Below, piece after piece: positions 21,486 to 43,270 of a stretch of 64,000 nt of DNA. How positions within the stretch are numbered: the first letter of the stretch is position 1; the number at the start of each line of letters is the position of its first letter. The notes beneath the pieces were generated by a model. That model saw nothing but the letters and a program-made list of their open reading frames with translations, ran no database searches and was not told the origin of the DNA. This DNA is from a bacterium. GTDB taxonomy: Bacteria; Electryoneota; AABM5-125-24; Hatepunaeales; Hatepunaeaceae. Both the position numbers and the translations under genes were made by a program. The DNA lies in NCBI GenBank assembly GCA_025774605.1, contig JALGVR010000001.1:2634-66633 (forward strand), in the 5' to 3' direction.

Positions 21486-22730
21486 TTGAACACCGACCTT
21501 TTAGTGATCGGCGGAGGGATCGCCGGCATTACGGCTGCCGTCGAAGCGGCGGAAACCGGCAGGGAGGTCGTACTGGTGGAGAAGCAGCACCAACTCGGCG
21601 GACGCGTGCTGCAGATGCACAAGTACTTCCCCAAGCTGTGCCCACCGGTGTGCGGTCTCGAGATCAACTTCCGCCGCATCAGGCAGAATCCGAAGATCAA
21701 GGTTTTAACCGGCGCCAAACCGACCAGTATCGAAGGCGTTCCCGGCGATCTGACCGCGATCATCCACGTCGAACCGAGCTATGTAAAGGCTGATTTCACG
21801 AGCGGCAAAGGTGTTGAAAATGACTGTCCGGTGGAAATCGCCGATCGGTTCAATTTCGGCATGAACAGGACCAAGGCGTTCAGACTGCCGCACGAACTCG
21901 CCTACCCCTATCGGTATGTCATCGATGAGGAATCGGCTCACGACCCGGCGATGAAGCAATTTATCGAATCGTCCGGCATCGAGGGCGTTGACCTCGACAT
22001 GCAGCCCGAAGACGTCGAGGTCAAAGCCAAGGCGGTTATCTGGGCGACCGGCTGGGAACCCTACGACGCGAACAAGCTTGATCACCTCGCCTACGGCAGA
22101 CTGCCGAACGTCGTCACGAACATGGAGATGGAACGGATCGCCGCGGTCAACGGCCCCACGAAGGGCAAAATCCTCCGACCGTCCGATCAGCAGCCGATCA
22201 CCAGAGCCGCCTTCGTTCAGTGCGCCGGCTCACGTGACGAGAACCATCTGCCGTACTGCTCGGCGGTATGCTGCATGGCTTCACTGAAACAGAGCCGTTA
22301 CATCAGGGAGCAGTACCCGGACGCGGAGATCCACATTTTCTTTATCGACGCCCGCACTCCCGGTCGGTGGGAGGATTTTTACCAGGAAGTTCAGGACGAT
22401 GAGAAGACCGTCATCCACCGCGGCAAGGTGGCTCGCATCGAGGAAGCCGGGAACGGCATGGTGACGCTGACCGCCGAGAATACCTTGACGGGCAAGTTGG
22501 AACAGGTGAGCGTCGACATGGCGATCCTTGCCACAGGCATGGTTCCGACGGTCGCCGTGGACGCGCCACCGATCAAAATCAACGTGGATGAATTCGGTTT
22601 CATACAGAATAACGGGACTTCCGTTGTTGTCGGCGCCGGCGTAGCCACCGGCCCCAAGGACGTCGCCTCGACCAATGAGGAAGCGACCGGCGCGGTCGTG
22701 AGGGCGCTGCAGATGATGACGGGGAAATAG
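21486..22730 (+). CDS. qmoA: QmoA (HdrA-like flavoprotein).
   Basis: 414 aa. LVIGGGIAGITAA FAD motif. HdrA-family CAGSRD...YCS.VCC motif. Confidence 0.85.
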   Translation: MNTDLLVIGGGIAGITAAVEAAETGREVVLVEKQHQLGGRVLQMHKYFPKLCPPVCGLEINFRRIRQNPKIKVLTGAKPTSIEGVPGDLTAIIHVEPSYVKADFTSGKGVENDCPVEIADRFNFGMNRTKAFRLPHELAYPYRYVIDEESAHDPAMKQFIESSGIEGVDLDMQPEDVEVKAKAVIWATGWEPYDANKLDHLAYGRLPNVVTNMEMERIAAVNGPTKGKILRPSDQQPITRAAFVQCAGSRDENHLPYCSAVCCMASLKQSRYIREQYPDAEIHIFFIDARTPGRWEDFYQEVQDDEKTVIHRGKVARIEEAGNGMVTLTAENTLTGKLEQVSVDMAILATGMVPTVAVDAPPIKINVDEFGFIQNNGTSVVVGAGVATGPKDVASTNEEATGAVVRALQMMTGK

Positions 22731-22733
22731 AAC

Positions 22734-25001
22734 ATGGAAGCTAAAACAGGCGTATATATCTGTTCCGGCTGCGGCATCAAGGATTCTTGTAACGTTGAAG
22801 CCATCGCCAAGATGGTGGAAGACGAGCTCGATGTGGAGCTCTGCAAGGTTGATCCGCTGGTCTGCGGCGATGAATGTGTGGCGGGTATCAAAGCCGACAT
22901 CGAAGCCGCGGGGTTGGATCATGTGGTGATCGCCGGCTGTTCCGGCCGTTATTTTTCCGATCGATTCAAGTTCGGCGACAATGTGCTGATCGACCGGGTG
23001 GCTCTGCGTGAGTTCGTCGCCTGGACGAGCGATCCGCAGGCCGATATCGACGACATCGAAGAGGTTATACAGGAGCAGGCTGAAGACTACCTGCGCATGA
23101 GCGCAGCGCGGATGAAATACAGCGAAGCCCCCGTGCCGATGGATGTGGAGGAGACATCCAGGGATATCATGGTGGTCGGTGCGGGCGTGGCGGGGCTTAA
23201 CGCCGCGCTGGCCGCCGCTGATGCCGGTTACAAGGTTACACTTGTCGAAAAGGAAGCCGAGCTCGGCGGCTGGTCGAGGAAATTCAAGACGGTCATTCCC
23301 CAGGCCGCGCCCTATCGCGAACCTCAGGCTCCGCCTCACACCGAGCTCGTTAAAGCTGTGAACGATCACGAACTGATAAAGGTCCTTACTTCATCGACAG
23401 TGACCAGGACCAGCGGTCAGCCCGGTCAGTTCGACGTGACCATCCAGAACGGTTCGGGCGAAGAGAAACTTCGCATCGGCGCCATCGTCCAGGCGACCGG
23501 CTGGCTGCCTTACGATCCGACCAGGCTCGCGGACAAGTACGGTTACGGCAGGCTCCCCAACGTCATCACCAACGTCATGATGGAGGAGATGGCGGCGGCG
23601 GGCAGGATCGCCAGGCCGTCCGACGGCGCGGCGCCTAAGGCCGTGGCGATCATTCACTGCGCCGGATCGCGTGACAGGGAATTCCTGCCCTACTGTTCGG
23701 CGGTCTGCTGCCGGGTGGCCATGAAGCAGGCTCTGTATATCCGCGAGCAGATGCCGGATACCGATGTTTACCTGCTGTACAAGGACATCCGCAGCCCGGG
23801 CGTCTTTGAGCAGTTCTATGCCAGGGTTCAGGATGAGGAGGGCATCTACCTGACAAAGGGTGAGGTCGTCGAGGTTGTCGAAGACGGTAACGGCGGCGTT
23901 TCGGTGACCCTGGATGACACGCTGCTGGGTGAGAATATAACCGTTCAGGCGGATATGCTGGTGCTGGCGACCGGCATGGTTCCGACGACGCTTGTCGAAA
24001 CCGACGAGACGGACGGGGCGGAGACCGAAGAGAAACCCGCCGAAGAGTCCCCGGGTGACGGGGATGAGAAATCGAGGGCCGCCGGCGCTGAAACAGGCGC
24101 CAATATCCTGGCGCTGACCTACCGCCAGGGAACGGACCTGCCCACACTGAAATACGGATTTCCGGATTCTCATTTCATCTGTTTTCCCTACGAAACCAGA
24201 CGCACCGGCATCTATGCCGCCGGCGCCGTGCGCGCGCCGATGGATATGGGTATGGCGAGGAATGACGGACTGGGCGCGGCGCTGAAGGCGATCCAGGCGG
24301 TGGAAGCATTTCCGCTGGGGCGTGCGCTTCACCCGCGGTCCGGTGATATCAGCTTTCCGGAATTCTTCCTTCAACGCTGCACGCAATGCAAACGCTGTAC
24401 CGAGGAGTGTCCGTTCGGCAGCCTGGACGAGGACGACAAGGGCACACCGGAGCCGAACCTGCTGCGCTGCCGCCGCTGCGGCATCTGTATGGGCGCCTGC
24501 CCGGAGCGGATCATCTCGTTCAAGGACTACTCGCCGAATATGATCTCGCAGATGATCAAGGTCATTTCGATGCCCGAAGAGGACGACGAAAGACCGCGTT
24601 ACCTGGTGTTCATGTGCGAAAACGACGCGCTGCCGGCGTTTGACATCGCGGCCTGGCACAGGCACAAGATCTCTCCGTGGGTGCGCATCATTCCGGTGCG
24701 CTGCATCGGTTCGGTAAATACGGTGTTCATTGCCGACGCGCTGAACGGAGGCTTCGACGGCATCCTGCTGTTGGGTTGCAAGCGCGGTGACGATTATCAG
24801 TGTCACTTCGTGCGCGGCAGCGAACTCGCCAACACCAGGATGGAAAACGTCCAGGAGAAACTGCTGCAACTGTCGCTCGAAGAGGAGCGCGTCCAGATTC
24901 ATGAGGTCGAGCTGTCGGATTGGGATCGGATCCCGGAGATCATCAATGACTTCGTCGAGGAGATCAACGACATCGGGCCGAATCCGTTCAAGGATTTTTA
25001 G
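22734..25001 (+). CDS. qmoB: QmoB (HdrA-like flavoprotein with ferredoxin and a MvhD-like C-terminal domain).
   Basis: 755 aa. Two HdrA-like FAD halves, a di-cluster ferredoxin (CTQCKRCTEECP; CRRCGICMGACP), and a C-terminal MvhD-like domain. Confidence 0.85.
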   Translation: MEAKTGVYICSGCGIKDSCNVEAIAKMVEDELDVELCKVDPLVCGDECVAGIKADIEAAGLDHVVIAGCSGRYFSDRFKFGDNVLIDRVALREFVAWTSDPQADIDDIEEVIQEQAEDYLRMSAARMKYSEAPVPMDVEETSRDIMVVGAGVAGLNAALAAADAGYKVTLVEKEAELGGWSRKFKTVIPQAAPYREPQAPPHTELVKAVNDHELIKVLTSSTVTRTSGQPGQFDVTIQNGSGEEKLRIGAIVQATGWLPYDPTRLADKYGYGRLPNVITNVMMEEMAAAGRIARPSDGAAPKAVAIIHCAGSRDREFLPYCSAVCCRVAMKQALYIREQMPDTDVYLLYKDIRSPGVFEQFYARVQDEEGIYLTKGEVVEVVEDGNGGVSVTLDDTLLGENITVQADMLVLATGMVPTTLVETDETDGAETEEKPAEESPGDGDEKSRAAGAETGANILALTYRQGTDLPTLKYGFPDSHFICFPYETRRTGIYAAGAVRAPMDMGMARNDGLGAALKAIQAVEAFPLGRALHPRSGDISFPEFFLQRCTQCKRCTEECPFGSLDEDDKGTPEPNLLRCRRCGICMGACPERIISFKDYSPNMISQMIKVISMPEEDDERPRYLVFMCENDALPAFDIAAWHRHKISPWVRIIPVRCIGSVNTVFIADALNGGFDGILLLGCKRGDDYQCHFVRGSELANTRMENVQEKLLQLSLEEERVQIHEVELSDWDRIPEIINDFVEEINDIGPNPFKDF

Positions 25002-25046: not shown

Positions 25047-26273
25047 ATGGCGGACAAAACCAAAGCCTCGGGAAAACTCGACGAGCTGAAAAAGGGTCCG
25101 TATCCGAGCTTCGTGAAGGAGATCGAGGCCGCCGCGGAAACCAACAAGATGGCGCATGACCTGATCGGTCAGCTTGAGCTTTCCTACGATGAAAAACTTT
25201 GCCACTGGAAACACGGCGGCATTGTAGGTGTGATGGGGTACGGCGGAGGCGTTATCGGTCGTTACAGCGATGTTCCGGAGAAATTTCCCAACGTGTCACA
25301 TTTTCACACCTTGCGCGTCAATCAGCCCGCTGCCTGGTTTTACAAGACGGATGCGTTGCGGAAGATATGCGACATGTGGGAGAAGCGTGGGTCTTCAGTA
25401 TTGAACGTTCACGGCTCAACCGGCGATATCGTTCTGCTGGGCACCACGACACCGCAATTGGAGCCCGTCTTCAATGAACTCACATCGCTGGGATTCGATC
25501 TGGGGGGATCGGGATCGGTACTCAGAACCCCGTCCTGCTGCGTGGGACCGGCGCGCTGCGAATGGGCGATGTACGACACCCTGAAATACGCTTACGAAAT
25601 GACAATGCGCTATCAGGATGAGCTGCACAGGCCGTACTTCCCCTACAAGTTCAAGTTCAAGTTTGCCGGCTGCCCCAATGACTGCGTGGCCTCGGTGGCG
25701 CGCGCCGACATGTCGTTCATCGGCACGTGGAAGGACGACATTCAGATCGACCAGGACAAGGTTCGCTGGTATGCTGAAGAGCGGAAGGTCGATATCGAAG
25801 ACGTGGTTGTGGAGCGCTGCCCGACCAAATGCATGGCTTGGGACGGCAAGGAGCTCTTCATCGACAACCGCAACTGCGCCAGGTGCATGCACTGCATCAA
25901 CGTCCTGCACCTCGCTCTCAAGCCCGGCAAGGACCGCGGCTGCACCATCATGCTCGGCGCGAAAGCCCCGATCCTTGAAGGCGCTCAGTTGTCGAGTGTC
26001 CTGGTGCCGTTCATGCGGATGGCGCCGCCTTATGGAGAGGACGAAGCCACCGCCGAAGACCTTCCGGAACTGATCGACAACATCTGGGAGCTGTGGGGCG
26101 AAGAGGGCAAGAACCGGGAACGTGTCGGCGAATTTATCCAGAGGATAGGCATGGGCAACTTCCTGGACGCCATCGGTCTCGAACCGCAGGCCGAGATGGT
26201 TGCGCATCCCCGCACAAACCCGTACGTCTTCTACGACCTGGGTAAGGATGAAGAAGAGGAAGAGGATGAGTAA
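25047..26273 (+). CDS. dsrA: Dissimilatory sulfite reductase alpha subunit.
   Basis: Collinear with Desulfovibrio DsrA ([27 protein letters not shown]; [19 protein letters not shown]; [11 protein letters not shown]). Confidence 0.9.
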
Positions 26274-26352
26274 TACTGCTTCTCAGCTTGAGAAGTACAT
26301 CCTCGATCGCTCATTTAGGCAATTAATGATATAAAGATACAGGAGATCAACA

Positions 26353-27435
26353 ATGACAGCAGAACCAGCTGAAAGGTTGACTGATATAGGTCCACCGCAT
26401 TATGAGAGATTCCTGCCGCCGGTGGTGAAGGCAAACTATGGCAAGTGGGTGAGCCATGAAATCCTTCAACCGGGCGTACTGGTTCATACTGCGGAGTCCG
26501 GTGACAAGATCTATTCGATCAGGGCGGCAACCGCGCGCTTGATATCGGTGCCCAAGATACGTCAATTCTGTGATATTGCGGATAAATACTGCGACGGGCA
26601 CATTCGCTGGACGAGCCGCAACAACGTGGAATTTCTGACCACCAAGAAGGAGAATGTAGAACCCATCAAGCAGGCGGTTGAAGCGCTGGGTCATCCGGTG
26701 GGCGGCACCGGCAACAGTATAACCAACATCGTTCATACCCAGGGATGGGTTCATTGTCACTCGGCCGCCACCGATGCCTCCGGCATAGTCAAGGCGGTAA
26801 TGGATGAACTGATGGACGAATTCACCAACATGCGCCTGCCCGGCAAACTCCGCATCGCGCTGGCTTGCTGCCTTAACATGTGCGGCGCGGTTCACTGCTC
26901 GGACATCGCCATCCTTGGCATCCACCGCCGTCCGCCGACCATCGATCACGATCGGCTGCGCAAGATGTGCGAGATCCCGAACACCGTGGCAGCATGTCCG
27001 ACGGCGGCGGTCCGTCCGGTGACCATTGACGGCAACCCGTCGGTCGAGGTTATCGAAGAGCAGTGCATGTTCTGCGCCAACTGCTTCACGGTCTGTCCCT
27101 CCATGCCGCTCAACGATCCCGAATATGACGGCGTCTCAATCTGGGTCGGCGGCAAGGTGTCCAACGCGAGGCATGAGCCGACGTTCTCGAAGCTGGCGGT
27201 GCCATACATTCCCAACAATCCGCCGCGCTGGCCCGAAGTGGTCAGCGCCGTAAAGAACCTCGTCACCATCTGGACTGACAACGCCAGACCGTATGAACGG
27301 ATGGGCGAATGGATCGAACGGATCGGATGGCCGCGCTTCTTCGAGATGGCTGGAATTGACTTCCAGAAGGAACATATTGATGACTTCAAGCATGCAGTAA
27401 CAACCTACAAGACGTCTGCACACTTGAGGTTCTAA
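26353..27435 (+). CDS. dsrB: Dissimilatory sulfite reductase beta subunit.
   Basis: 360 aa. Siroheme/[4Fe-4S] Cys motifs ([20 protein letters not shown]). Follows dsrA. Confidence 0.9.
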
Positions 27436-27454: not shown

Positions 27455-27721
27455 ATGGCTGATATGGTACCAGTCGAAGAGATTGCCGATGCTATGTTCA
27501 AGATGATTAAGGACGCTGCCGGCAAGAAGCAGTACAAATCAATGGATCTGCAGAAGGCGATGAAGGAGCTCTATCCGGGTCGAGTGGATAAACAGCTCTG
27601 CAAGGCGGCGATCAAGCAGCTTATCAATTCAGGACGCTGCATTTACACCTATTTCGGAGGCAGCTACATCGAGCTTCCTCACGTCGAAGGTGCGGCGAAT
27701 CCTGAACAGACGGAAACGTAG
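27455..27721 (+). CDS. dsrD: DsrD (small winged-helix protein, a marker of reductive-type Dsr).
   Basis: 88 aa. The position after dsrB and the C-terminal pattern (INSGRCIYTYFGGSYIEL) resemble Desulfovibrio DsrD. Confidence 0.7.
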   Translation: MADMVPVEEIADAMFKMIKDAAGKKQYKSMDLQKAMKELYPGRVDKQLCKAAIKQLINSGRCIYTYFGGSYIELPHVEGAANPEQTET

Positions 27722-29107
27722 TTGAACCCACCCCGGCTGCTCATAGCCGGATGCGGTGGAGACAGCGGAAAGACCTTGGTGACGCTGGGTCTGATCCGGA
27801 CCTGGCGTCACAAGGACATTAAAATAGTCCCTTTCAAGAAGGGACCCGATTATATCGATCCTGCCTGGCTTACCCTGGCATCCGGTGTTGAAACCCATAA
27901 TCTCGACACCTGGATGATGGGGCGGGAAGGAGTATTGCGCTCTTTTACACGATATTCGCGCCCGGATGCGTTGAACCTGATCGAGGGCAACCGCGGGCTG
28001 CACGACGGCGGGGACGCCCGGGGAACGCACTCCTCGGCGGTCATCGCCAGACTGCTGAAGACGCCGGTTGTCCTGGTTCTGCCCGTGAACAAGGTTACCC
28101 GAACGGCGGCGGCGTTTGTCCTGGGGGTTAAGCTTCTCGACGAAAATGTCCGTATCGCCGGTGTTGTTCTGAATCTTGTCGGCGGCGAACGGCATGAAGC
28201 CGTGGTCAGGAGGGCTGTTGAGGATGAGACCGGTGTGCCGGTGCTGGGGGCGGTGCCGCGCCGCAGGCGTGAGATCCTGCCCGACCGGCACCTGGGGCTG
28301 GTGACGCCGTCCGAACACGCGCAGGCCGACCAGGCGATCGAGGTCGCCTGCAGTATGGTTCGCGATACAATCGACACCGATCGGTTGCTGCGGATAGCCC
28401 ACGATACGGATGATTTGACCGGCACGGTCTCGGCTGAACCGGTGCACGAGATACACGACCGCAACATCAGGATCGGTTATTTCGCCGGTTCGGCGTTTAC
28501 CTTTTACTATCCCGAGAACCTGGAGGACTTGAAAGCCTCCGGGAGCTCGCTGGTGAAAATCAATCCGCTTGAAGCCCCGGCAATGCCTGAAATCGACGCT
28601 CTTTATATCGGCGGCGGGTTTCCTGAAACGCACGCCGCTTCGTTGAGCGGAAATCAACGGTTTATGCAAAGCGTGGCTGAGGCGGCGGCACGGGGACTGC
28701 CGGTCTGGGCCGAATGCGGTGGCTTGATGTTTCTGGCGCGGCGGCTTGAGTGGCGGGGGAGGAGCTACCCGATGGCCGGTGTTCTGCCGGTTGATGTCAA
28801 GGTTCAAGAACGTCCCCAGGGGCACGGCTACCAGGAGATCGAGGTCGACGCCGACAATCCGTTCCTCAGGATCGGAACACGTATACGCGGTCATGAGTTT
28901 CACTATTCGCGGGTGATTTCTCATGCTGAACCGCCGACCGTGTTCCGGGTGCGGCGGGGAACCGGGATCGGCGGCAATCGCGATGGTATCAGGATAAATA
29001 ACACACTCGCTTCGTATCTGCATGTGCATTCGTCTGCTGCACCGGAATGGTGTGATGGAATGATAAAAGCGGCAATGAATTACAACGTATCACATTTTCA
29101 GAAATAG
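27722..29107 (+). CDS. dsrN: Siroheme amidase DsrN (cobyrinic acid a,c-diamide synthase homolog). TTG start.
   Basis: CbiA-family P-loop (GCGGDSGKT). A C-terminal glutamine amidotransferase domain with the catalytic Cys (WAECGGLMFL). Confidence 0.8.
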   Translation: MNPPRLLIAGCGGDSGKTLVTLGLIRTWRHKDIKIVPFKKGPDYIDPAWLTLASGVETHNLDTWMMGREGVLRSFTRYSRPDALNLIEGNRGLHDGGDARGTHSSAVIARLLKTPVVLVLPVNKVTRTAAAFVLGVKLLDENVRIAGVVLNLVGGERHEAVVRRAVEDETGVPVLGAVPRRRREILPDRHLGLVTPSEHAQADQAIEVACSMVRDTIDTDRLLRIAHDTDDLTGTVSAEPVHEIHDRNIRIGYFAGSAFTFYYPENLEDLKASGSSLVKINPLEAPAMPEIDALYIGGGFPETHAASLSGNQRFMQSVAEAAARGLPVWAECGGLMFLARRLEWRGRSYPMAGVLPVDVKVQERPQGHGYQEIEVDADNPFLRIGTRIRGHEFHYSRVISHAEPPTVFRVRRGTGIGGNRDGIRINNTLASYLHVHSSAAPEWCDGMIKAAMNYNVSHFQK

Positions 29108-29164: not shown

Positions 29165-30862
29165 ATGGCTTTAGTAAAGAAGAAGAAGAAACTCACCATA
29201 AAAAGTGTCGGCGCTTCCGGCGCTTCCGGAGTGGAACACAGCCCGCGCCGGCCCTATCAGATCGAGAAACTTGCACCGTGTATGGGCGGCTGCCCGCAGG
29301 GGACGGATATCCGCGGTTTCCTGATGAAGATCGCCCAGGCGGAGAAATACGGACAACCGCAGGAGGAAGCCTTCAGGGAGGCCTGGGAAATACTCACTGC
29401 AACCAACCCGCTTCCGGCGATCTGCGGTCGCGTCTGTCCCCACCCGTGCGAGGACGGCTGCAACCGCAAGGAGAAGGACGGCGCGCTGGCGATAAACAAC
29501 GTCGAACGTTTCCTGGGCGACTGGGGGATCAAGCAGGAACTGAAGTTGAAAAAATCGACCGACGAATCCTATCCCGAGAAGGTCGCCATCATCGGCGCCG
29601 GACCGGCCGGTCTTTCGGCCGCCTATCATCTGGCGAAGCGCGGCTACGGGGTCACGATCTTCGAGTCGTTCCCCAAGGTCGGCGGAATGCTGCGTTACGG
29701 CATTCCCCGGTACCGGCTGCCGCGCGGGATCATAGACGCGGAAGCGCAGAAGATATTCGATATGGGCGTGGAGATTAAAACCAACGTCACCGTCGGCAAA
29801 GATATACCCTACGAGAAGTTGCAGCAGGACTTTGACGCCGTATTCGTCGGTATCGGCGCCCATGGCGGCAAGAAGCTCCACGCACCCGGTGAAGATGCGC
29901 CGAACGTTTACAGCGGAGTCGAATACCTTCGCCTGGTGAACAGCGGGAAGCCACCGGAGGTTGGAGATAAGGTGGTCGTCGTCGGCGGCGGTGATACGGC
30001 GATCGACGCCGCACGGGTCGCCCTGAGGCTCGGCGCCAAGGTCACCCTGCTCTATCGCCGCACGCGCAACGAGATGCCGGCCATCGAGGAGGAGATCGTT
30101 GGCGCCGAAGAGGAGAACATCGAGTTTCACTTCCTTGCCGCCCCGATTGAGATTATCCAGAAGGATGGTTTGGCTGTCGAAATGCGCTGCCAGAACATGG
30201 AGCTCGGCGAACCGGATGAATCCGGCAGACGCCGCCCGGTGCCGATCGAGGGAGATGAATTCACCATTCCTGTCACCGCGGTCATCTCGGCGATCTCCCA
30301 GGAGCCTGACTGGGGCGGATTGGATCACCTGCACGAGGGCAGGGACTGGGTCAAGGTGGACGAATACGGTCAGACCAAATACGAAGGGACATACGCCGGC
30401 GGCGATGTCCTGGATCTGGGACTGGTGACGATTGCAATCTATCAGGGTCGCCGAGCCGCCGACACGATTCATAATCGGTTCCGCGGGATTGAACTGAAGC
30501 CGGAGGAGATGAAGAAGGTTATCAGCGCCGACAAGCTTCTGCTCGACTGGTACGAGAACGCCCAACGTCATGAGGCGACGAAGATCCCCCCCGATGAGCG
30601 GTTCAAGGATCCGTGGTCGGAGATAACAGAAACGCTGCCTGACAGCGACATTATCGCTGAAGCCAGACGCTGTATGAGCTGCGGTATATGCTTCGACTGC
30701 GGCAATTGCTGGAGCTACTGCGGCGAGAACGTGGTTGTCAAACCGCTCGTACCCGGCGATCCGTACAAGTTCAAACTCGAACTGTGCAACGGTTGCGATA
30801 AATGCGCTGAAAACTGCCCTTGCGGATACCTCGAGATGAAAGATCCAGCAAGTCTACCATAA
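29165..30862 (+). CDS. dsrL: DsrL-like NAD(P)H:acceptor oxidoreductase (GltD-like Fe-S flavoprotein with a C-terminal ferredoxin domain).
   Basis: GltD-type N-terminus (CMGGCPQG...CGRVCPHPCE). FAD and NAD Rossmann motifs (IIGAGPAGL; VVVVGGGDTA). C-terminal Cys clusters (CMSCGICFDCGNC; CNGCDKCAENCPC). Located between dsrN and dsrC. Confidence 0.7.
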   Translation: MALVKKKKKLTIKSVGASGASGVEHSPRRPYQIEKLAPCMGGCPQGTDIRGFLMKIAQAEKYGQPQEEAFREAWEILTATNPLPAICGRVCPHPCEDGCNRKEKDGALAINNVERFLGDWGIKQELKLKKSTDESYPEKVAIIGAGPAGLSAAYHLAKRGYGVTIFESFPKVGGMLRYGIPRYRLPRGIIDAEAQKIFDMGVEIKTNVTVGKDIPYEKLQQDFDAVFVGIGAHGGKKLHAPGEDAPNVYSGVEYLRLVNSGKPPEVGDKVVVVGGGDTAIDAARVALRLGAKVTLLYRRTRNEMPAIEEEIVGAEEENIEFHFLAAPIEIIQKDGLAVEMRCQNMELGEPDESGRRRPVPIEGDEFTIPVTAVISAISQEPDWGGLDHLHEGRDWVKVDEYGQTKYEGTYAGGDVLDLGLVTIAIYQGRRAADTIHNRFRGIELKPEEMKKVISADKLLLDWYENAQRHEATKIPPDERFKDPWSEITETLPDSDIIAEARRCMSCGICFDCGNCWSYCGENVVVKPLVPGDPYKFKLELCNGCDKCAENCPCGYLEMKDPASLP

Positions 30863-30890: not shown

Positions 30891-31205
30891 ATGATCTTCG
30901 AATGGGAAGATATCAAAATCGAAGTTGATGAAGACGGTTTTATGCAGGAACCGGATCAGTGGAACGAACGCGTTGCGCTGGCTCTGGCGAGCACCGAGGG
31001 TGTTTCCGAGCTGACCGATGAGCATTGGAAGCTCGTCAACTACCTTCGTGAGTATTACCAGAAATTCGGCATTGCGCCGATGATTCGCAAGCTTTGCAAG
31101 GAAACCGGGTTTCCACTGAAAAAGGTCTACGAACTGTTTCCGTCAGGACCGGCAAAGGGCGCCTGCAAGGTCGCAGGTCTCGCCAAACCGACCGGTTGTG
31201 TCTGA
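30891..31205 (+). CDS. dsrC: DsrC (TusE/DsrC family) with the two conserved C-terminal cysteines.
   Basis: 104 aa. The C-terminus ...KGACKVAGLAKPTGCV has CysA at the penultimate position and CysB 11 residues upstream. Confidence 0.9.
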   Translation: MIFEWEDIKIEVDEDGFMQEPDQWNERVALALASTEGVSELTDEHWKLVNYLREYYQKFGIAPMIRKLCKETGFPLKKVYELFPSGPAKGACKVAGLAKPTGCV

Positions 31206-31218: not shown

Positions 31219-31260
31219 ATGCGGGATTTTCGAGGTGCTTAAGCCTTGAAAATCCCGCAT
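31219..31260 (+). terminator. 13-bp perfect-stem hairpin immediately after dsrC. Possibly a terminator or mRNA-stabilising stem-loop.
   Basis: atgcgggattttc-[16 nt loop]-gaaaatcccgcat. No T-tract follows. Confidence 0.4.
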
Positions 31261-31303
31261 GATATATGCGTCATCTCTATTCCATTTGGTTGTAATACCG
31301 AGT

Positions 31304-31831
31304 ATGCGGTTCGATGACATCCTGAAGAGGAGAGAGAAGGCCGTCAAAACCAGATGGCTGAATCTCACCCTGGATACATATCCCGCCGATTCGTCCGGAT
31401 TCCTGAAAAATCAGAAGAATCAGTTCCTTAATCCTGTTGGAAACACTATTTCCCGGGAGATCGGTGTATTATACCGGTCGTTTCTGACCGAGACTGATCC
31501 TGAAACCATCGCCAATTCCCTTGACAGCATCATCAGGATCAGGTCCGTGCAGGAGTTCTCACCCTCTCAGGCGACCGGTTTCATCCTTCTCCTTAAACGC
31601 GCGGTCAGGGAGGAGCTTGCCGATGAGATACGATCCGCAGACTGTTTCGATGAACTGCAGCGTTTCGAGTTGAAGGTTGACGAGATGGCGCTGGCGGGGT
31701 TTGACGCATACGCGAGGTGCCGGGAGAGGCTGTTCGAGGTGAAGCTGAATGAGCTTAGACGCCAGACGAGCATCTCCCTGGCGCGATACAATCGTACCGG
31801 TCAACAGTCGGAGCAGTTAAATGATTCCTGA
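31304..31831 (+). CDS. dsrT: Candidate DsrT (RsbRD_N-like small protein upstream of dsrMKJOP).
   Basis: The N-terminal pattern W.NL.LDTYPADSSGFL...F.NPVGNT matches my recollection of the DsrT/RsbRD_N family. Position immediately before dsrM. The start was moved to MRFDD. Confidence 0.45.
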   Translation: MRFDDILKRREKAVKTRWLNLTLDTYPADSSGFLKNQKNQFLNPVGNTISREIGVLYRSFLTETDPETIANSLDSIIRIRSVQEFSPSQATGFILLLKRAVREELADEIRSADCFDELQRFELKVDEMALAGFDAYARCRERLFEVKLNELRRQTSISLARYNRTGQQSEQLNDS

Positions 31832-31876: not shown

Positions 31877-32869
31877 ATGAACGCCCTGTTTTCCCTGGTT
31901 GCAGTCGTCGTCCTGATGTTGCTGGCGCTGTTCGGAACATATGGCGCCGGTCTGCAGTACCTTTTCGGTGTTATTATTCCCTACATTGCCATCGTTACCT
32001 TCCTGGTCGGATTTGTCCTGCGCGTTGTCAGGTGGGCGCGGTCACCGGTTCCTTTTCGGATTCCGACCACGTGCGGGCAGCAGAAGTCCCTGCCTTGGAT
32101 AAAACACCATGAGCTCGAAAATCCGAGTAACGGCTTCAGTGCATTTCTGCGCATGGCGCTGGAGATACTGTTTTTCCGCTCCCTGTTCCGCAACACGAAA
32201 GCCGATCTCAAGAGCGGGCCCAAGCTGGTTTACGGCTCCAACAAGTGGCTCTGGCTGGGTGGTCTGGTCTTTCATTGGTCTTTGCTGGTTGTATTCATCA
32301 GGCATTTCAGATTTTTTACCGAGCCGGTCCCGTTCGGCATCAACCTGCTCGAAGAACTGGATTCATTCTTCCAGGTGGGACTGCCGATAATCTACATCAC
32401 CGATATTCTGCTGCTGGGTGCGCTGACCTACCTGGTGGGACGCAGGCTGCTTGACGCCAGGCTCCGATACATCTCGCTCAACGCGGATTACTTTCCCCTG
32501 TTCCTGATCCTGGGCATCGGTTGCACCGGCGCCTGGATGCGGTACTTCGCCAAGGTCGACATCGTCGGAGTCAAACAGCTCAGCCTGGGGCTGTTCAACC
32601 TTCATCCGGTGGTTCCGGAGGGGATAGGCGCCTTCTTCTACATCCACCTGTTTCTGGTGAGCGTTCTGATCGCCTATTTCCCGTTCAGCAAGCTGATGCA
32701 CATGGGAGGGATATTCCTCAGCCCGACCCGCAACCTGGCTAACAACAACCGCGTGAAACGACATGTCAATCCCTGGAATCCCGTGGTAAAGATACACACC
32801 TACGAGGAATACGAGGATGAGTTCAGGGAGGTCATGAAGGAAGCGGGCATGCCGTTGGAAAAGGAGTAA
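31877..32869 (+). CDS. dsrM: DsrM (NarI/HdrE-like membrane cytochrome b).
   Basis: 330 aa, 5-6 TM helices with conserved His. Precedes dsrK. Confidence 0.85.
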   Translation: MNALFSLVAVVVLMLLALFGTYGAGLQYLFGVIIPYIAIVTFLVGFVLRVVRWARSPVPFRIPTTCGQQKSLPWIKHHELENPSNGFSAFLRMALEILFFRSLFRNTKADLKSGPKLVYGSNKWLWLGGLVFHWSLLVVFIRHFRFFTEPVPFGINLLEELDSFFQVGLPIIYITDILLLGALTYLVGRRLLDARLRYISLNADYFPLFLILGIGCTGAWMRYFAKVDIVGVKQLSLGLFNLHPVVPEGIGAFFYIHLFLVSVLIAYFPFSKLMHMGGIFLSPTRNLANNNRVKRHVNPWNPVVKIHTYEEYEDEFREVMKEAGMPLEKE

Positions 32870-32871: not shown

Positions 32872-34488
32872 ATGTCTGAAACACCAACACCGGAAGAACT
32901 GGTCAAAGTGGACTACAAACCGCCTCGCAAGGCTTGGATGGACAGCAAGCCGGAGATGCGCCGGGGTGTTATCAACTGGTCGGCAGTGCCCAAGAACGTG
33001 GAATATCTGGATCTTCCCTTTCCCCGCAAATGGCAGCCGACCGATGATGACTGGAAGCTTCCGGAGAACTGGAAGGAGATTATCCTCGAAGGGATGAGGG
33101 ATCGACTCAAGCGGTTCCGCACCTTCCAGATCTTCATGGATATCTGTGTCCGATGCGGCGCCTGTGCCGATAAATGCCACTTCTTCATCGGCTCCGGCGA
33201 TCCGAAGAACATGCCGGTCCTCCGGGCTGAACTGCTGAGGGCCGTGTACAGGAGGGAGTTCAATCTTGCCGGTAAGCTGATGGGCAGGATGGCGGGGGCG
33301 CGGGAATTGACGGTTCCGGTGCTCAAGGAATGGTTTTACTACTTCTTCCAGTGCACCGAATGCCGCCGCTGTTCGGTCTTCTGTCCCTACGGCATCGACA
33401 CCGCCGAGATCACCATGATGGCGAGGGAGCTAATGAACCTCATCGGTGTCAGCATCGACTGGATAGTAACCCCCGCCGCCAACTGCTTCCGCACCGGAAA
33501 TCACCTCGGTATCCAGCCGCACGGCTTCCAGGACAGCGTCAATTTTGCGATAGACGACCTCGAGGACATCACCGGCATCAGGGTTGACGCGCCGGTCAAC
33601 CGGAAGGGCGCGGAGATTCTGTTCGTCGTGCCCTCGGCGGACTACTTCGCCGACCCCCACTACTACGGCTTTCTCGGTTATATGGCGCTGTTTCATGAGA
33701 TCGGTCTTGACTACACGTTCAGCTCGTTCGCCTCGGAGGGCGGCAACTTCGGCCTGTTTCACTCCAACGAGATGATGAAACGGTTGAACTCCAAGATCTA
33801 CATGGAAGCCAAACGACTGGGCGTCAGGTGGATACTCGGCGGCGAGTGCGGTCACATGTGGCGCGTGCTGAACCAGTACATGGACACGATGAACGGCCCC
33901 GCCGACTTCCTCGAGGTGCCGAAATCGCCGCTGACCGGCACGGTGTTCGAGAATGCGAAATCCACCAGGATGGTGCATATCTGCGAGTTCACCGCCGACC
34001 TGATCAAACACGACAAGTTGAAGCTGGACAAGAGCCGCAATGATCGCTGGCGGGTGACATTCCACGATTCGTGCAACCCGGCGCGGGCGATGGGCATACT
34101 GGAGGAGCCGCGTTACATCATCAATAACGTCTGCAACAACTTCTTTGAGATGCCTGAGGGCACGACGCGCGAGCAGACCTTCTGCTGTGGCGCCGGTGCC
34201 GGGCTGGGCACCGAGGAGAACATGGAGATGAGGATGCGCGGCGGTCTGCCGCGAGCCAACGCGGTCAAATACGTACACGACAAGTACGACGTAAACCTGC
34301 TGACCTGCATGTGCGCCATCGACAAGGCGGTGCTGCCGGCGCTGATGGATTACTGGGTGCCCGGTGTACAGATCGGCAGTGTTCACGAACTGGTCGGGAA
34401 TGCACTGATTATGAAAGGGGAAAAGAAGAGATCGAATGACCTGCGCGGCGAACCGATACCGGGAAAGGAGGCGGCTGAAGATGTTTGA
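32872..34488 (+). CDS. dsrK: DsrK (HdrD-like catalytic Fe-S subunit with CCG domain).
   Basis: CVRCGACADKC and CTECRRCSVFCP ferredoxin motifs. CCG-type Cys (CCGAGAG; C..CNPARAMG). Confidence 0.9.
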   Translation: MSETPTPEELVKVDYKPPRKAWMDSKPEMRRGVINWSAVPKNVEYLDLPFPRKWQPTDDDWKLPENWKEIILEGMRDRLKRFRTFQIFMDICVRCGACADKCHFFIGSGDPKNMPVLRAELLRAVYRREFNLAGKLMGRMAGARELTVPVLKEWFYYFFQCTECRRCSVFCPYGIDTAEITMMARELMNLIGVSIDWIVTPAANCFRTGNHLGIQPHGFQDSVNFAIDDLEDITGIRVDAPVNRKGAEILFVVPSADYFADPHYYGFLGYMALFHEIGLDYTFSSFASEGGNFGLFHSNEMMKRLNSKIYMEAKRLGVRWILGGECGHMWRVLNQYMDTMNGPADFLEVPKSPLTGTVFENAKSTRMVHICEFTADLIKHDKLKLDKSRNDRWRVTFHDSCNPARAMGILEEPRYIINNVCNNFFEMPEGTTREQTFCCGAGAGLGTEENMEMRMRGGLPRANAVKYVHDKYDVNLLTCMCAIDKAVLPALMDYWVPGVQIGSVHELVGNALIMKGEKKRSNDLRGEPIPGKEAAEDV

Positions 34489-34876
34489 CGGCTGGAAGAT
34501 CATCGTCGGGCTGATCATATTCATCACTCTGGCGACTGTTCCTTTCTGGTATGATGCGGCTGCGGGGAAGGGGACGGATGCGCCGGACATCCGGATTGAG
34601 ACGAAGGACGTTCCGGGCAGGGATCAGTGTGTGATGCCGGCGGAATACATGAGGTCTGATCACATGGAGCTGCTGAACGAGTGGCGCGACCAGGTGGTCA
34701 GGGGCAACCAGAGGGTTCATGTAACAGCTGATGGCCGAAAATACAGCCGCAGCCTTACCAATACCTGCCTGGATTGCCATTCCAACAAGGATACGTTCTG
34801 TGACAGGTGTCACGATTACATGTCAGTCAAGCCGTATTGCTGGGAATGCCATCTCGAACCGGAGGTGATGAAATAA
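34481..34876 (+). CDS. dsrJ: DsrJ (periplasmic triheme cytochrome c). The start was moved to MFDGWKII, which has an SD aggagg.
   Basis: Three CxxCH motifs (CLDCH, CDRCH, CWECH). An N-terminal TM/signal anchor. Confidence 0.8.
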   Translation: MFDGWKIIVGLIIFITLATVPFWYDAAAGKGTDAPDIRIETKDVPGRDQCVMPAEYMRSDHMELLNEWRDQVVRGNQRVHVTADGRKYSRSLTNTCLDCHSNKDTFCDRCHDYMSVKPYCWECHLEPEVMK

Positions 34877-35643
34877 TGGGTCTCGACAGAAGAAATTTCA
34901 TAAAGATCGCCGGCTTGTCAACCCTGGGACTGGCAGGGAAACCCGCCGTTGATGCCATTGCCCGCATCAGGCTGCCGGAGGAGGCCCCCCTGACGGCGAA
35001 ACGTTGGGCGATGGTCATCGATTTGAGGAAGTGCAGGGAAAATCCGGACTGCAACGAAGCCTGTATTCATGCCTGTCACAAGGTTCACAACGTCCCGGAT
35101 TTCAAGAACCCGAAGGATGAGATCAAGTGGATATGGGAGGAGCGGTTCGAGCACGCCTTCCATGACCAGTCACAGGAGTATGCTGACGAGAGCCACAGGG
35201 AGTTGCCGGCGCTGGTACTCTGCAATCACTGCGACGATCCGCCCTGCGTCAGGGTATGCCCGACCGAGGCGACCTGGAAGCGTGATGAGGACGGCGTTGT
35301 GATGATGGACTGGCACCGCTGCATCGGCTGTCGTTACTGTCTGGCGGCTTGTCCTTACGGCGCGCGCAGCTTCAACTGGCGCGATCCCAGACCCTTCATC
35401 GAGGAGATTGAACCCGATTTCCCCACCCGCATGAGGGGTGTGGTTGAGAAATGCACGTTCTGCGAAGAGCGTCTGGCGAGGGGTGAAATGCCCGCCTGCG
35501 TGGAAGCCTGCGACGCCGGGGCCTTGACGTTCGGCGACCTCGAAGATCCCGAATCCAGGGTCAGGGAACTGCTTCGGACACACTTCACCATCCGTCGCAA
35601 GCCCGGCCTGGGTACGCAACCGTCTGTTTACTACATAATATGA
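34876..35643 (+). CDS. dsrO: DsrO (periplasmic Fe-S ferredoxin-like subunit with Tat signal).
   Basis: Twin-arginine motif (RRNFIKIAGL). Four Cys clusters of HybA/DmsB-type. Its ATG overlaps the dsrJ stop. Confidence 0.85.
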   Translation: MGLDRRNFIKIAGLSTLGLAGKPAVDAIARIRLPEEAPLTAKRWAMVIDLRKCRENPDCNEACIHACHKVHNVPDFKNPKDEIKWIWEERFEHAFHDQSQEYADESHRELPALVLCNHCDDPPCVRVCPTEATWKRDEDGVVMMDWHRCIGCRYCLAACPYGARSFNWRDPRPFIEEIEPDFPTRMRGVVEKCTFCEERLARGEMPACVEACDAGALTFGDLEDPESRVRELLRTHFTIRRKPGLGTQPSVYYII

Positions 35644-35650: not shown

Positions 35651-36805
35651 ATGTTAGAGAAAGCGTTAAGCGGCAGCAGGGGATACTGGATATGGCTCGC
35701 CGTCCTGGTCGGCATTATCTTCATCGGCTTCCTCTTCTGGCTCAAGCAGTTCCACCAGGGGTTGATGATCACCGGGCTGAGCCGCGATGTCAGTTGGGGG
35801 TTCTACATCGCCCAGTTTACCTTTCTGGTCGGCGTGGCCGCTTCGGCCGTGATGGTTGTGCTTCCTTACTATCTTCACAATTACAGGGCATTCGGCAAGG
35901 TAGTCATACTGGGTGAGTTTCTGGCCATCCCGTCCGTGATCATGTGCATGACGTTCATCTTCGTTGACATGGGGCAGCCGTTCAGGATCCTCAATGTATT
36001 CATTCACCCGACGCCGCACTCGATGATGTTCTGGGATACGGTTGCTCTGGGTGGTTATCTGCTGCTTAACCTGTTGATAGGCTGGACGACGCTGGGCGCC
36101 GAACGCAAGTCGATCCCGCCGCCCAAATGGATAAAGCCATTCATCATTATTTCCATCCCCTGGGCGGTCAGCATCCACACGGTGACGGCTTTTCTGTACG
36201 CGGGGCTCGCCGCGCGTCCCTTCTGGATGACCGCTGTCCTGGCGCCGCGCTTCCTGGCATCGGCGTTCTCGTCCGGCCCCGCGCTGCTGATCCTCCTCAT
36301 TCTTCTGCTCAGAAAGCTGACGGATTTCGACGCCGGCAGGGAACCGGTGCAGAAGCTGGCGGTGATAGCCGCGTACGCCATGAGCGTAAACGTGTTCCTG
36401 ATCCTGATGGAGGTGTTTACCGCACTTTACAGCGGCATACCGGAGCATTCGATACATCTTAAGTATATGTTCGTCGGAATCGAGGGAAATATGGCATTGG
36501 TGCCGTGGATGTGGTTGTCGTCGATCCTGGCGGTTTTCACTCTTCTCCTGATCATTCCCCCGAAAACCAGGCGCAACGAAGCCGTACTTGCCGTTGCCTG
36601 CGTCACGCTGTTTCTCTCTATCTGGATCGACAAGGGCATGGGAATGATCGTCGCCGGATATGTCCCCAACCCGTTGGGCGAGGTTACCCAATATTTCCCG
36701 ACCGTGCCCGAGCTGCTCATCTCGCTGATGGTCTATGCTGTCGGGGCGCTTATCATTACGGTTCTGTACAAGGTTGCGTTGTCTGTCAGGGCGAGCGTTG
36801 CGTAG
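35651..36805 (+). CDS. dsrP: DsrP (NrfD/PsrC-family integral membrane quinone-interacting subunit).
   Basis: 384 aa, about 10 TM. NrfD-like. Completes the dsrMKJOP module. Confidence 0.85.
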   Translation: MLEKALSGSRGYWIWLAVLVGIIFIGFLFWLKQFHQGLMITGLSRDVSWGFYIAQFTFLVGVAASAVMVVLPYYLHNYRAFGKVVILGEFLAIPSVIMCMTFIFVDMGQPFRILNVFIHPTPHSMMFWDTVALGGYLLLNLLIGWTTLGAERKSIPPPKWIKPFIIISIPWAVSIHTVTAFLYAGLAARPFWMTAVLAPRFLASAFSSGPALLILLILLLRKLTDFDAGREPVQKLAVIAAYAMSVNVFLILMEVFTALYSGIPEHSIHLKYMFVGIEGNMALVPWMWLSSILAVFTLLLIIPPKTRRNEAVLAVACVTLFLSIWIDKGMGMIVAGYVPNPLGEVTQYFPTVPELLISLMVYAVGALIITVLYKVALSVRASVA

Positions 36806-36950: not shown

Positions 36951-38633
36951 GTGGAGGTGGTTGTCATAGGCGGATCCGCCGCCGGACTTAAGGCGGCCTG
37001 CCGTATCAGCAGACTGCAGCCGGACGCAGGGGTCAGAGTCCTCGTCAAGGACAGGCGCTTCGCGTATTCCAACTGTGGACTGCCCTATTACCTGTCCGGC
37101 GACATCGAGAGCTTTGACGCGCTCATCACCGCTCCCAACGGCACGATCAAGGATGAGAGATACTTTCGTGATGTGAAGAATGTCGAAGTTTTCACCGGGC
37201 GTGAGGTTGTCAAGATTGACCGCGACGCCAGGTTGATCCGCTGCCATGATTCCGAAAGGAATCGGGAGGAGACGTATCCATTCGACAGGCTGGTGCTCTC
37301 AACGGGATCAAGCCCGATTATACCGGCGATCCCGGGTGTGAATGCGCCTGGTGTGCTCACCTTCACCAAGGCCGATGACGCGATCGCGCTGAGAACTGAT
37401 CTTGAAGCCAATCGCATAAGCAGGATCACCATAATCGGGGCGGGATTCATCGGGCTTGAACTCTGCGAGGCGTTCAGGGCGATGTGGGGGGTTGACGTTG
37501 ACCTCGTTGAGCTGCAGAATCAGGTTCTCTCCGGCCTGGTCGATACGGAACTCTCCGAAATCATTGAGGACGAAATACGCAGCCATGGCGTTAATATCCG
37601 GCTTGGGTGCGGTTGTCATGAGATTGTCAGGGAAGGTGAGAGGTTCTGTATCTTCGATCATGCCGGCGAGATGTTCGAATCGGACCGGATAATCATTGCC
37701 GCCGGTGTTCGTCCGAATGTCGAGCTGGCGAGGGAGGCCGGCCTGGAGATCGGGGTGACGGGGGGAATTAAGGTCAACAGTCACCTGCGGACATCGGATC
37801 CTGATATTTATGCGGCGGGTGATTGCGTCGAACTGCCCGACGCGGTGGATGGACGGGCCGGGTCATGGACGCTCGGATCGCTGGCGTCGCGCATGGGACG
37901 CGTGGTCGGCGACAACATCTGCAACGGCGACTCCCGTTTCGGCCCGGTGGTCGGTACGACCGTGCTTAAGATATTCGACATCACCATCGGTTCGGCGGGG
38001 CTTACCAGAGCGGACTGTAAGGATCGGGGTTACGAGATAAATGAGTGCTGGGGAACCTTTCACGATCGCCTGCATTATTTTCCTGAAGCCGGACCCACCA
38101 GAGCCAAGATAATATATGATCCGACCGATGGCAGGATTCTCGGCTTCCAGGCGGTCTCGCACGGCAATATCGTGCACACCCTGAATATTGCGTCGCAGAT
38201 CATGCGCAACAGCGGGACGCTGGATGACCTGAACGATATAGAGCATGCATATTCTCCGCCGTTTGCACAGCAGTTCGAGACCCTTCACTACCTTGCATTT
38301 ATTGCGGAGAACAGCCGCGTCGCCGGTGTGAAGCTTGTATCGCCGGCCGAGTTCACCAGCCTGCCCGATGAGACGCTGATTCTCGACGTACGGACAAAGG
38401 CTGAGATCGAAGGACGGCCACTCAATGGTGGAACGCGGCGTGTAATCGAGATACCGGTCGAAGAGCTGAGGGCGCGTTTGAACGAAATACCCAGTGCCGG
38501 CAAGGTTGTAACTGTCTGTCAAATGGGGGGACGCGGCTGGGACGCGGCGCTGATGCTGAGACGCGCCGGATTCACGGACGTCGGGATTCTCGCCGGAGGG
38601 GCTCTATTTTTGCCAACCGGTACTGCAGCTTGA
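36951..38633 (+). CDS. CoA-disulfide reductase / NADH oxidase-family flavoprotein fused to a C-terminal rhodanese domain (NADH-dependent persulfide/polysulfide reductase-like). GTG start.
   Basis: Single redox Cys in the SNCGLPYY motif (Cdr/Nox family). FAD/NAD Rossmann folds. A C-terminal rhodanese with active Cys in VCQMGGRG. Confidence 0.7.
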   Translation: MEVVVIGGSAAGLKAACRISRLQPDAGVRVLVKDRRFAYSNCGLPYYLSGDIESFDALITAPNGTIKDERYFRDVKNVEVFTGREVVKIDRDARLIRCHDSERNREETYPFDRLVLSTGSSPIIPAIPGVNAPGVLTFTKADDAIALRTDLEANRISRITIIGAGFIGLELCEAFRAMWGVDVDLVELQNQVLSGLVDTELSEIIEDEIRSHGVNIRLGCGCHEIVREGERFCIFDHAGEMFESDRIIIAAGVRPNVELAREAGLEIGVTGGIKVNSHLRTSDPDIYAAGDCVELPDAVDGRAGSWTLGSLASRMGRVVGDNICNGDSRFGPVVGTTVLKIFDITIGSAGLTRADCKDRGYEINECWGTFHDRLHYFPEAGPTRAKIIYDPTDGRILGFQAVSHGNIVHTLNIASQIMRNSGTLDDLNDIEHAYSPPFAQQFETLHYLAFIAENSRVAGVKLVSPAEFTSLPDETLILDVRTKAEIEGRPLNGGTRRVIEIPVEELRARLNEIPSAGKVVTVCQMGGRGWDAALMLRRAGFTDVGILAGGALFLPTGTAA

Positions 38634-42701: not shown

Positions 42702-42715
42702 TGAGCCTCCAGGTC

Positions 42716-43191: not shown

Positions 43192-43241
43192 TTGAGCCTC
43201 CAAATTTGGTGGGACGGGTATTACTGGCTTTCGTTTATGGC

Positions 43242-43268: not shown

Positions 43269-43270
43269 TA

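Follow-up and report, generated by a model that had tools for sequence, protein, structure and literature searches.

In the 64-kb window analysed here (64,000 nucleotides (nt) of contig JALGVR010000001.1, within which all positions are given), a co-directional island of genes was found on the + strand with the order sat-aprBA-qmoCAB-dsrAB-(D-like)-N-L-C-T-MKJOP, followed by siroheme genes. The gene in question is the dsrL of that island, occupying positions 29165-30862 as a single complete open reading frame (ORF) of 565 amino acids (aa) from ATG to stop. Upstream of it lie dsrA (25047-26273; TIGR02064, 559 bits), having the DsrA proteins of Archaeoglobus fulgidus and Desulfovibrio as its best solved relatives, dsrB (26353-27435; TIGR02066, 513 bits), a gene for a small protein of 88 aa with a predicted winged-helix fold (27455-27721) that is the positional equivalent of DsrD, and dsrN (27722-29107; NF002204; TIGR00379, 428 bits), encoding a CobB-like siroheme amidase. 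Downstream follow dsrC (30891-31205; PF04358, TIGR03342), the product of which has both of the functional C-terminal cysteines (C92-x10-C103-V, ...PTGCV), a dsrT-like gene with an RsbRD_N domain (31259-31831; PF14361) in a position conserved in related loci, and the genes of the DsrMKJOP membrane complex, namely dsrM (31877-32869), dsrK (32872-34488), dsrJ (34436-34876), dsrO (34807-35643) and dsrP (35651-36805), which matched the NCBIfam equivalog models NF038037, NF045796, NF038038, NF045797 and NF045798, each above its cut-off. From dsrA to dsrP the gaps were at most 57 nt, except for the 79 nt between dsrA and dsrB. An earlier note on this DNA had given the gene order as dsrABDNLC, and that order was borne out by contiguous + strand ORFs and their family matches, with the letter D supported by position, fold and usage in the literature. 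As argued below, we consider it highly likely that the ORF at 29165-30862 encodes a genuine DsrL, that this DsrL belongs to the type 2 linked to NADPH, and that it acts in a reductive dissimilatory sulfate-reduction pathway.

The domain order of the encoded protein was that described for DsrL by Löffler 2020 (PMC7596348). An N-terminal NfnB-like domain for two [4Fe-4S] clusters (29240-29536, residues 26-124), recognized by Fer4_20 and by alignment to NfnB (4ylf_B), is followed by a flavin adenine dinucleotide (FAD) domain with an embedded NAD(P) domain (29579-30478, residues 139-438; GAGPAGL and GGGDTA motifs), a linker (30485-30664, residues 441-500) in the short form that lacks the DsrL-1A extension, and a C-terminal two-cluster ferredoxin domain (30665-30835) with cysteine motifs at 503-519 (C503/506/509/512/515/519, spaced C503-x2-C-x2-C-x2-C-x2-C-x3-C) and 541-553 (C541/544/547/551/553, spaced C541-x2-C-x2-C-x3-C-P-C). 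With Pfam, matches were obtained for Fer4_20 at residues 37-124, Pyr_redox_2 at 139-428 and Pyr_redox at 269-335, and the best NCBIfam model was the generic ‘NAD(P)-binding protein’ NF009410, which scored 590 bits (cut-off 516). An N-terminal ferredoxin extension, for which the earlier note proposed an inspection, was found only in the sense of an NfnB-type two-cluster domain at the N-terminus, the ferredoxin domain that is the hallmark of DsrL being instead C-terminal. DsrL-1A proteins carry an insertion of about 32 aa in the NAD(P) domain and a linker longer by about 30 aa (Löffler 2020, PMC7596348); neither was present here, the NAD(P) segment (262-345) being 84 aa and the linker segment (440-502) 63 aa, as in other dsr-linked homologues. 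By the boundaries used here the linker comprises about 60 aa, for which Löffler 2020 gives about 100.

According to Löffler 2020 (PMC7596348), a Ser or Thr replaces Cys39 of NfnB in all DsrL proteins, an Arg takes the place of NfnB Cys42 in the DsrL-2 of organisms that have reductive DsrAB, and a YRR motif tied to NADP(H) specificity marks DsrL-2. The N-terminus of the window protein reads S26-P-R-R29-x9-C39-x3-C43, having S26 at the position of NfnB Cys39, three residues ahead of R29, and R29 in place of NfnB Cys42, while the YRR motif, as the mark of NADP(H) preference, is found at Y297, R298 and R299 (30053-30061). When the cluster ligands were mapped after Löffler 2020, via the alignment to 4ylf_B, the distal cluster would be held by S26, R29, C39 and C99 and the proximal one by C43, C91, C95 and E114. 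All of these residues, together with Y297-R299 and every one of the C-terminal cysteines, were invariant in an alignment with 13 relatives at 59-78% identity, which also had invariant columns in the FAD/NAD(P) core. The genomic setting was likewise that expected of a DsrL, in that a complete gene is present on one contig with dsrAB (25047-27435, same strand) and is flanked by dsrN and dsrC, with no genes for subunits of a pyruvate or ketoisovalerate:ferredoxin oxidoreductase adjoining it.

Relatives were collected in a scan of one genome per species with DsrL-2-specific peptide patterns, which gave 80 loci with homologues at 40-79% identity, and these loci were re-annotated by BLAST against the window proteins. 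In this set of named genomes, 55 complete homologues, or 58 when shorter ORFs are included, had a dsr context, usually with the order dsrAB, a small D-like gene, N-L or L-N and then C-T-MKJOP, in phyla that include Ignavibacteria, Zixibacteria, Kryptoniota, Acidobacteriota, Gemmatimonadota, Myxococcota, Planctomycetota and Spirochaetota. The signature [S/T]-x2-R together with YRR was seen in 57 of the 58, the sole exception being an N-terminally truncated ORF. S-x2-C, the variant of DsrL-2 in organisms with oxidative DsrA (Löffler 2020, PMC7596348), occurred in the DsrL-2 encoded beside the oxidative-type DsrAB of Desulforhopalus IMCC35007 (L058) and in the copy of Nitrospirae CG2_30_53_67 (L049); S-x2-L was found in two SAR324/Lambdaproteobacteria sequences, in agreement with what Löffler 2020 reported for Lambdaproteobacteria. 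Homologues without dsr neighbours had ‘SWRxxxP’ at the N-terminus. As a separate observation, the cluster representatives P0125, P0129 and P0132-P0135 kept the S-x2-R signature and had lost YRR (e.g. SRR, YHR or LRR); they may resemble DsrL-2 while preferring a different nucleotide.

For the tree we used neighbour joining (NJ), a distance method and not maximum likelihood, with Kimura distances, 404 core columns and 200 bootstraps on 80 sequences, these being the window DsrL, 75 locus sequences and four outgroups, i.e. Thermotoga maritima NfnB, Pyrococcus furiosus NfnI-L, the Nfn-like module 9bov and Escherichia coli GltD. Targeted splits on these 80 taxa of known context replaced an earlier NJ tree of 157 taxa, in which the exact-clade bootstraps of 0 to 30 were uninformative. 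The window DsrL and all 55 dsr-context sequences were separated from the four outgroups in 197 of 200 replicates, and the grouping with NfnB, GltD or SudA that the earlier note had named as the result speaking against DsrL was therefore not seen for the NfnB-type and GltD sequences in the tree. Members of the clade to which the window DsrL belongs are nearly always encoded beside dsrAB. A split placing the window protein with an FCB-type set, to the exclusion of the Acidobacteria 37-71-11 type, was found in 130/200. Monophyly of the reductive-context sequences without the oxidative-partner DsrL-2 and Lambdaproteobacteria was never recovered (0/200), the sequences to be excluded nesting inside instead, in agreement with the published tree of Löffler. 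In that tree the references L012, L027, L058 and L049 are named in Newick form, and Ignavibacteria RIFOXYC2_FULL_35_21 and Acidobacteria 37-71-11, both on its DsrL-2 branch, belong to our dsr-linked homologue set. Over the core, the window DsrL was 83% identical to that of Candidatus (Ca.) Hatepunaea, 63% to that of Ignavibacteria RIFOXYC2_FULL_35_21 and 57% to that of Acidobacteria 37-71-11, as compared with 46% for T. maritima NfnB, 44% for P. furiosus NfnI and 37% for E. coli GltD.

The nearest sequence by NJ was that of Ca. Hatepunaea, next a metagenome-assembled genome (MAG) of Calditrichaeota and then Ignavibacteria and Zixibacteria. Ca. Hatepunaea meridiana was also the closest named genome (79% identity for DsrL, 91% for DsrC and 83% for DsrK); it belongs to Ca. 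Electryoneota (GTDB AABM5-125-24), and its MAG was taken to represent a sulfate reducer with a facultatively anaerobic lifestyle (PMC9324843). The window itself comes from an uncultured member of the FCB group (Fibrobacterota, Chlorobiota and Bacteroidota), its DsrA being on record as HHE46125.1 with the NCBI label ‘Bacteroidetes bacterium’. The same neighbourhood of Löffler's tree is occupied by ‘Zixibacteria SURF9’, presumably identical to the SURF-9 MAG that GTDB places in AABM5-125-24.

The sequence evidence thus supports the proposal of the earlier note that a DsrL-2-like protein is here tied to reductive DsrAB and DsrC, as indicated by YRR, Ser26, Arg29, the lack of DsrL-1A insertions and the NJ grouping. 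By pairwise identity, the window DsrA (59-72%) and DsrB (59-76%) appeared closer to those of DsrD-linked, reductive loci than to the oxidative type, represented by the DsrAB beside DsrL-2 in Desulforhopalus IMCC35007 (rDsrAB; 44% for DsrA and 50% for DsrB). The operational definition of DsrL-2C (Diao 2023) describes what was found within the window, namely a gene near reductive dsrAB and dsrD, here in its D-like form, with no oxidative dsrAB. Some observations nevertheless weigh against this assignment. The split that excludes not only the outgroups but also the fusion paralogues and the SWR-type paralogues, linked to 2-oxoacid oxidoreductases (POR), was found in only 119/200 NJ replicates. 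Most proteins of the broader Nfn-like family, molybdoenzyme fusions among them, had YRR as well, and since it is so widespread among non-DsrL proteins it does not by itself mark a DsrL; it would separate DsrL-2 from DsrL-1, not DsrL from other proteins, and we rejected it as a diagnostic of DsrL. Exclusion from DsrL-1 would moreover follow from published signature characters, the trees containing no DsrL-1 sequences: judged by motifs and segment lengths, no clear DsrL-1 was seen among the best 150 representatives of 1.84 billion clusters, and a tblastn search of plasmids for DsrL-1 gave only GltD-, YgfK- and PreT-like genes. Finally, the DsrL-2 function of the window protein is read from its sequence, by analogy to the sole characterised DsrL-2, that of Desulfurella amilsii.

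The occurrence of DsrL together with DsrD in one locus is a configuration already known, having been in the literature since 2018. Hausmann 2018 described Acidobacteria with sat, aprBA, qmoABC, dsrAB, dsrD, dsrN, a dsrL-dsrC pair, dsrT and dsrMKJOP and pointed out the paradox of DsrL alongside DsrD, which Löffler 2020 (PMC7596348) resolved through the split into DsrL-1 and an NADPH-specific DsrL-2. Diao 2023 then defined DsrL-2C and catalogued about ten phyla, with AABM5-125-24 among those having a full dsr set, dsrD and a type 2 dsrL. The sole loose end at the present locus is the weak sequence link of the DsrD-like family to canonical DsrD.

The DsrD-like gene begins 19 nt after dsrB and thus sits in the slot of dsrD, with the size of a dsrD, and a homologue (34-74% identity) was found in the slot after dsrB in 49 of the 58 dsr-context loci. 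In a Deltaproteobacteria MAG (L020, 7052-8449), DsrB and a DsrD-like domain form one in-frame ORF of 465 aa, and because of this fusion a physical partnership with DsrB is supported for the family. It mirrors the DsrB-DsrD fusion of Bilophila wadsworthia. The protein is rich in Lys, with K28, K34 and K50 invariant, and has a hairpin motif, Y64-x-Y-x-G-G-S, in register with the canonical YWSSGSTT. Its AlphaFold2 model was a three-helix winged helix (predicted local distance difference test score, pLDDT, 86), for which Foldseek against the PDB returned generic winged helices only. The database relatives of the family numbered 756; the 120 that were listed were unnamed or ‘hypothetical protein’, apart from one ‘transcriptional regulator’ of the Joint Genome Institute, and none had a Pfam DsrD domain on record. 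In the literature, acidobacterial members of this family were aligned with Desulfovibrio vulgaris DsrD and named DsrD (Hausmann 2018), and dsrD was scored as present in AABM5-125-24 (Diao 2023).

Against these observations stands the possibility, unlikely in our view, that the 88-aa gene is not a dsrD at all but encodes an unrelated winged-helix protein, such as a DNA-binding regulator, so that DsrD and DsrL would not truly be co-resident. In favour of this reading, the window protein had no match to Pfam DsrD (PF08679) even at E≤10 and none in NCBIfam; among 27 relatives from the loci, only two reached Pfam DsrD, below threshold (E 0.0047), while 13 matched a generic winged-helix family; neither the family profile nor phmmer recovered 1UCR from the PDB; and hhalign gave a probability of 0.3% against 1UCR and of 0.5% against 18 canonical DsrD proteins of Desulfovibrionaceae, though with the register as expected. 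To this can be added that nearly all of the public records listed annotate the protein as hypothetical and that it has two cysteines, which canonical DsrD lacks; these two are, however, not invariant in the family. The slot and size, the DsrB fusion, the invariant lysines, the hairpin in register and the literature usage all speak for DsrD, and we find it very probable that the 88-aa protein corresponds to DsrD in function, on the basis of position, predicted fold, the fusion to DsrB in a relative and usage in the literature. We name it DsrD-like, as the thresholds of the PF08679 model place it outside that family.

DsrD has been shown to be an allosteric activator of DsrAB for the A. fulgidus and D. 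vulgaris proteins only (Ferreira 2022). By analogy, and going by position and fold, the DsrD-like protein would most likely activate DsrAB allosterically in the same manner. It is rather improbable that the family instead constitutes a distinct lineage of DsrAB effectors that co-evolved with DsrL-2 and is not a simple orthologue of Desulfovibrio DsrD; were this nonetheless true, it might tune DsrAB for NADPH-driven reduction, or else let the enzyme run reversibly in FCB bacteria, Acidobacteriota and related lineages that are facultatively aerobic.

In the mechanism that can be proposed from the biochemistry of D. amilsii DsrL-2 and Allochromatium vinosum DsrL (Löffler 2020), NADPH would bind at the YRR-bearing Rossmann site and reduce the FAD, from which electrons would run through [4Fe-4S] clusters to DsrAB, either by way of the clusters at the N-terminus or by way of the ferredoxin domain at the C-terminus, which is mobile. 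DsrAB together with DsrC would then reduce sulfite to the DsrC trisulfide, which in turn would be reduced by DsrMKJOP. We infer that the direction in vivo is reductive because of the DsrAB identities (59-76% versus 44-50%), Arg29, the D-like gene, dsrT and the lack of dsrEFH in the window. With regards to the latter, none of the ORFs scanned over the 64 kb matched a DsrE/F/H, TusA or YeeE family, so that the absence of dsrEFH stated in the earlier note is borne out for this window, though not genome-wide. DsrEFH type II, the genes of which adjoin tusA and yeeE, has recently turned out to occur in many sulfate reducers; it is hard to see by sequence, and the window had no adjacent small genes forming a trio that would fit it.

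Gene content and sequence do not, on the other hand, determine the direction in which the pathway runs in vivo, and the same genes could be used in reverse or in both directions, for sulfur oxidation or disproportionation (the earlier note had named a bidirectional metabolism as its alternative), with DsrL-2 as an NADP+-reducing electron acceptor for DsrAB. DsrL-2 is indeed also found with oxidative DsrAB, and such oxidative-partner sequences nested among the reductive-context ones in the NJ analysis; the related Ca. Hatepunaea MAG was reported to have SoeABC and O2 reductases (PMC9324843); the type II DsrEFH of sulfate reducers points the same way; and the authors of the papers on these genes caution against predicting direction from them (Löffler 2020, PMC7596348; Hausmann 2018; Diao 2023). 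We still regard such use as improbable, as the DsrAB is of the kind seen in DsrD-linked loci, dsrT and a DsrD-like gene accompany it, and an Arg at position 29 has been reported for no DsrL-2 other than those of organisms whose DsrAB is reductive, while the window has neither type I dsrEFH, tusA, yeeE nor a small-gene trio fitting type II, and the NADPH specificity has been argued to suit reduction (Löffler 2020, PMC7596348).

That the gene should instead encode a flavoprotein of the NfnB, GltD or SudA type, or one linked to a 2-oxoacid oxidoreductase, that merely lies near dsr genes is hardly credible, for although the top solved relatives are Nfn-like modules that commonly share YRR, NF009410 scores 570 bits on the POR-linked paralogue of Ca. 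Hatepunaea as compared with 590 here, such that automatic annotation cannot separate the two, and a gene for pyruvate:ferredoxin oxidoreductase is found 14 kb away (45044-48619, minus strand), the gene has dsrN and dsrC as immediate neighbours with no NfnA, GltB or por subunit alongside, its position among dsr genes is kept across many phyla, S-x2-R stands where the POR-linked paralogues have W-R, the outgroups were excluded as given above, and NfnB and GltD lack the C-terminal ferredoxin domain.

Beyond correct annotation, the significance of a DsrL-2 with a DsrD-like partner at this locus is small. In public annotation, DsrL of the window type is called ‘NAD(P)-binding protein’ or ‘FAD-dependent oxidoreductase’, and surveys that look for dsrD with Pfam or NCBIfam models would record it as missing from lineages carrying the DsrD-like family. 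With a generic model for DsrL and a ‘hypothetical’ DsrD-like gene, marker surveys using these databases would therefore miss both markers in these lineages.

Upstream of the dsr genes, the island comprises sat (15424-16656), aprB (16711-17151), aprA (17165-19051), qmoC (20259-21434), qmoA (21486-22730) and qmoB (22734-25001), all identified by NCBIfam and all on the + strand. The order qmoC-qmoA-qmoB is not the usual qmoABC, and a Calditrichaeota MAG (L007) likewise has qmoC ahead of qmoA. Between aprA and the qmo genes lies a gene for a YkgJ-type CxxCxxCC protein of 276 aa (19442-20272, + strand; PF03692), a position that is kept in about 20 related loci. Further upstream are a membrane pyrophosphatase (13206-15320, + strand) and a protein with a type IX secretion system (T9SS) sorting domain (8673-12371), which fits an FCB-group host. 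Directly 3' of dsrP, a flavoprotein resembling CoA-disulfide reductase or NADH oxidase, with a C-terminal rhodanese domain, is encoded at 36951-38633 (+ strand); homologues were found 3' of dsrP in 18 of the 80 related loci, from FCB-group bacteria, Zixibacteria, Acidobacteriota and Myxococcota, and its role may be that of a conserved accessory, related to sulfur, in dsr clusters of this kind. The siroheme genes, again found by NCBIfam on the + strand, are hemA (38665-39843), the cysG N-terminal domain (40275-40916) and a cobA/hemD fusion (40913-42460). Scans for terminators and promoters inside the cluster gave matches at chance level only, and scans of the window for Rfam families and tRNAs found nothing.

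Downstream of the island, and not adjacent to dsrL, a dihydroorotate-dehydrogenase-like protein (43810-44700) and the pyruvate:ferredoxin oxidoreductase already mentioned, a single-chain enzyme (TIGR02176, 1825 bits), are encoded on the minus strand. Between the siroheme genes and the former, a cluster of small minus-strand ORFs (42504-43787) appeared by eye to be toxin-antitoxin-like, with Phd/YefM-like ORFs at 42504-42701 and 43512-43787, the second of these alone having a weak Pfam match, a HicA-like ORF at 42716-42970, a HicB-like ORF at 42930-43154 and a RelE/ParE-like ORF at 43271-43522. The only trio of small ORFs, on the + strand at 42529-43515, was examined as a candidate dsrEFH and rejected, its ORFs being of low complexity, unconserved in any locus and overlapping these minus-strand ORFs.

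When the system is compared with known ones, NfnB (T. maritima 4YLF/4YRY chain B; P. furiosus NfnI, 5JCA) and E. coli GltD resemble the window DsrL in having an N-terminal domain for two clusters, a core for FAD and NADPH, and YRR, but they lack the linker as well as the ferredoxin domain and have NfnA and GltB as partners, and the distal ligands Cys39 and Cys42 of NfnB contrast with Ser and Arg here. The profile of an NfnB, GltD or SudA (about 470 aa, no C-terminal ferredoxin, beside NfnA, GltB or SudB) hence differs from a protein of 565 aa with a ferredoxin domain and dsrN and dsrC as neighbours. The POR-linked paralogue of Ca. Hatepunaea meridiana (L072, 9893-11605; 43% identity to the window DsrL) matches it in length and in the order of its domains, ends in a PorD-like ferredoxin domain and likewise has YRR and the NF009410 match; it differs from the window DsrL in its ‘SWRxxxP’ N-terminal motif and in its por neighbours, lying in a cluster porC-x-paralogue-porA-porB; this class is excluded from DsrL by the third criterion of Löffler 2020 (PMC7596348).

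DsrL-1A of A. vinosum and DsrL-1B of Chlorobaculum tepidum are alike in architecture and in their role as NAD(P)H-linked partners of DsrAB, whereas DsrL-1 according to the description of Löffler 2020, by which the comparison was made, lacks YRR, has a Cys as fourth distal ligand and is encoded with rDsrAB and dsrEFH, in all of which the window protein differs. The DsrD-like protein resembles D. vulgaris DsrD (1UCR, PF08679) in its small size, its richness in Lys, the place of its gene immediately behind dsrB and the fusion to DsrB in some genomes, and, being modelled as a winged helix, it may do so in fold. Finally, in comparison with D. amilsii DsrL-2, made by published description and not by sequence, we found no material difference, and with that protein and DsrL-2C (Diao 2023) the window DsrL shares the domain order, YRR, Ser and Arg at the distal positions, the short NAD(P) domain and the short linker. 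As with the DsrL-2 of organisms having reductive DsrAB, its gene follows dsrAB of the reductive type and a dsrD, here the D-like gene, in the order D-N-L-C as compared with D-L-N-C or D-L-C in many loci of Acidobacteriota and Myxococcota.

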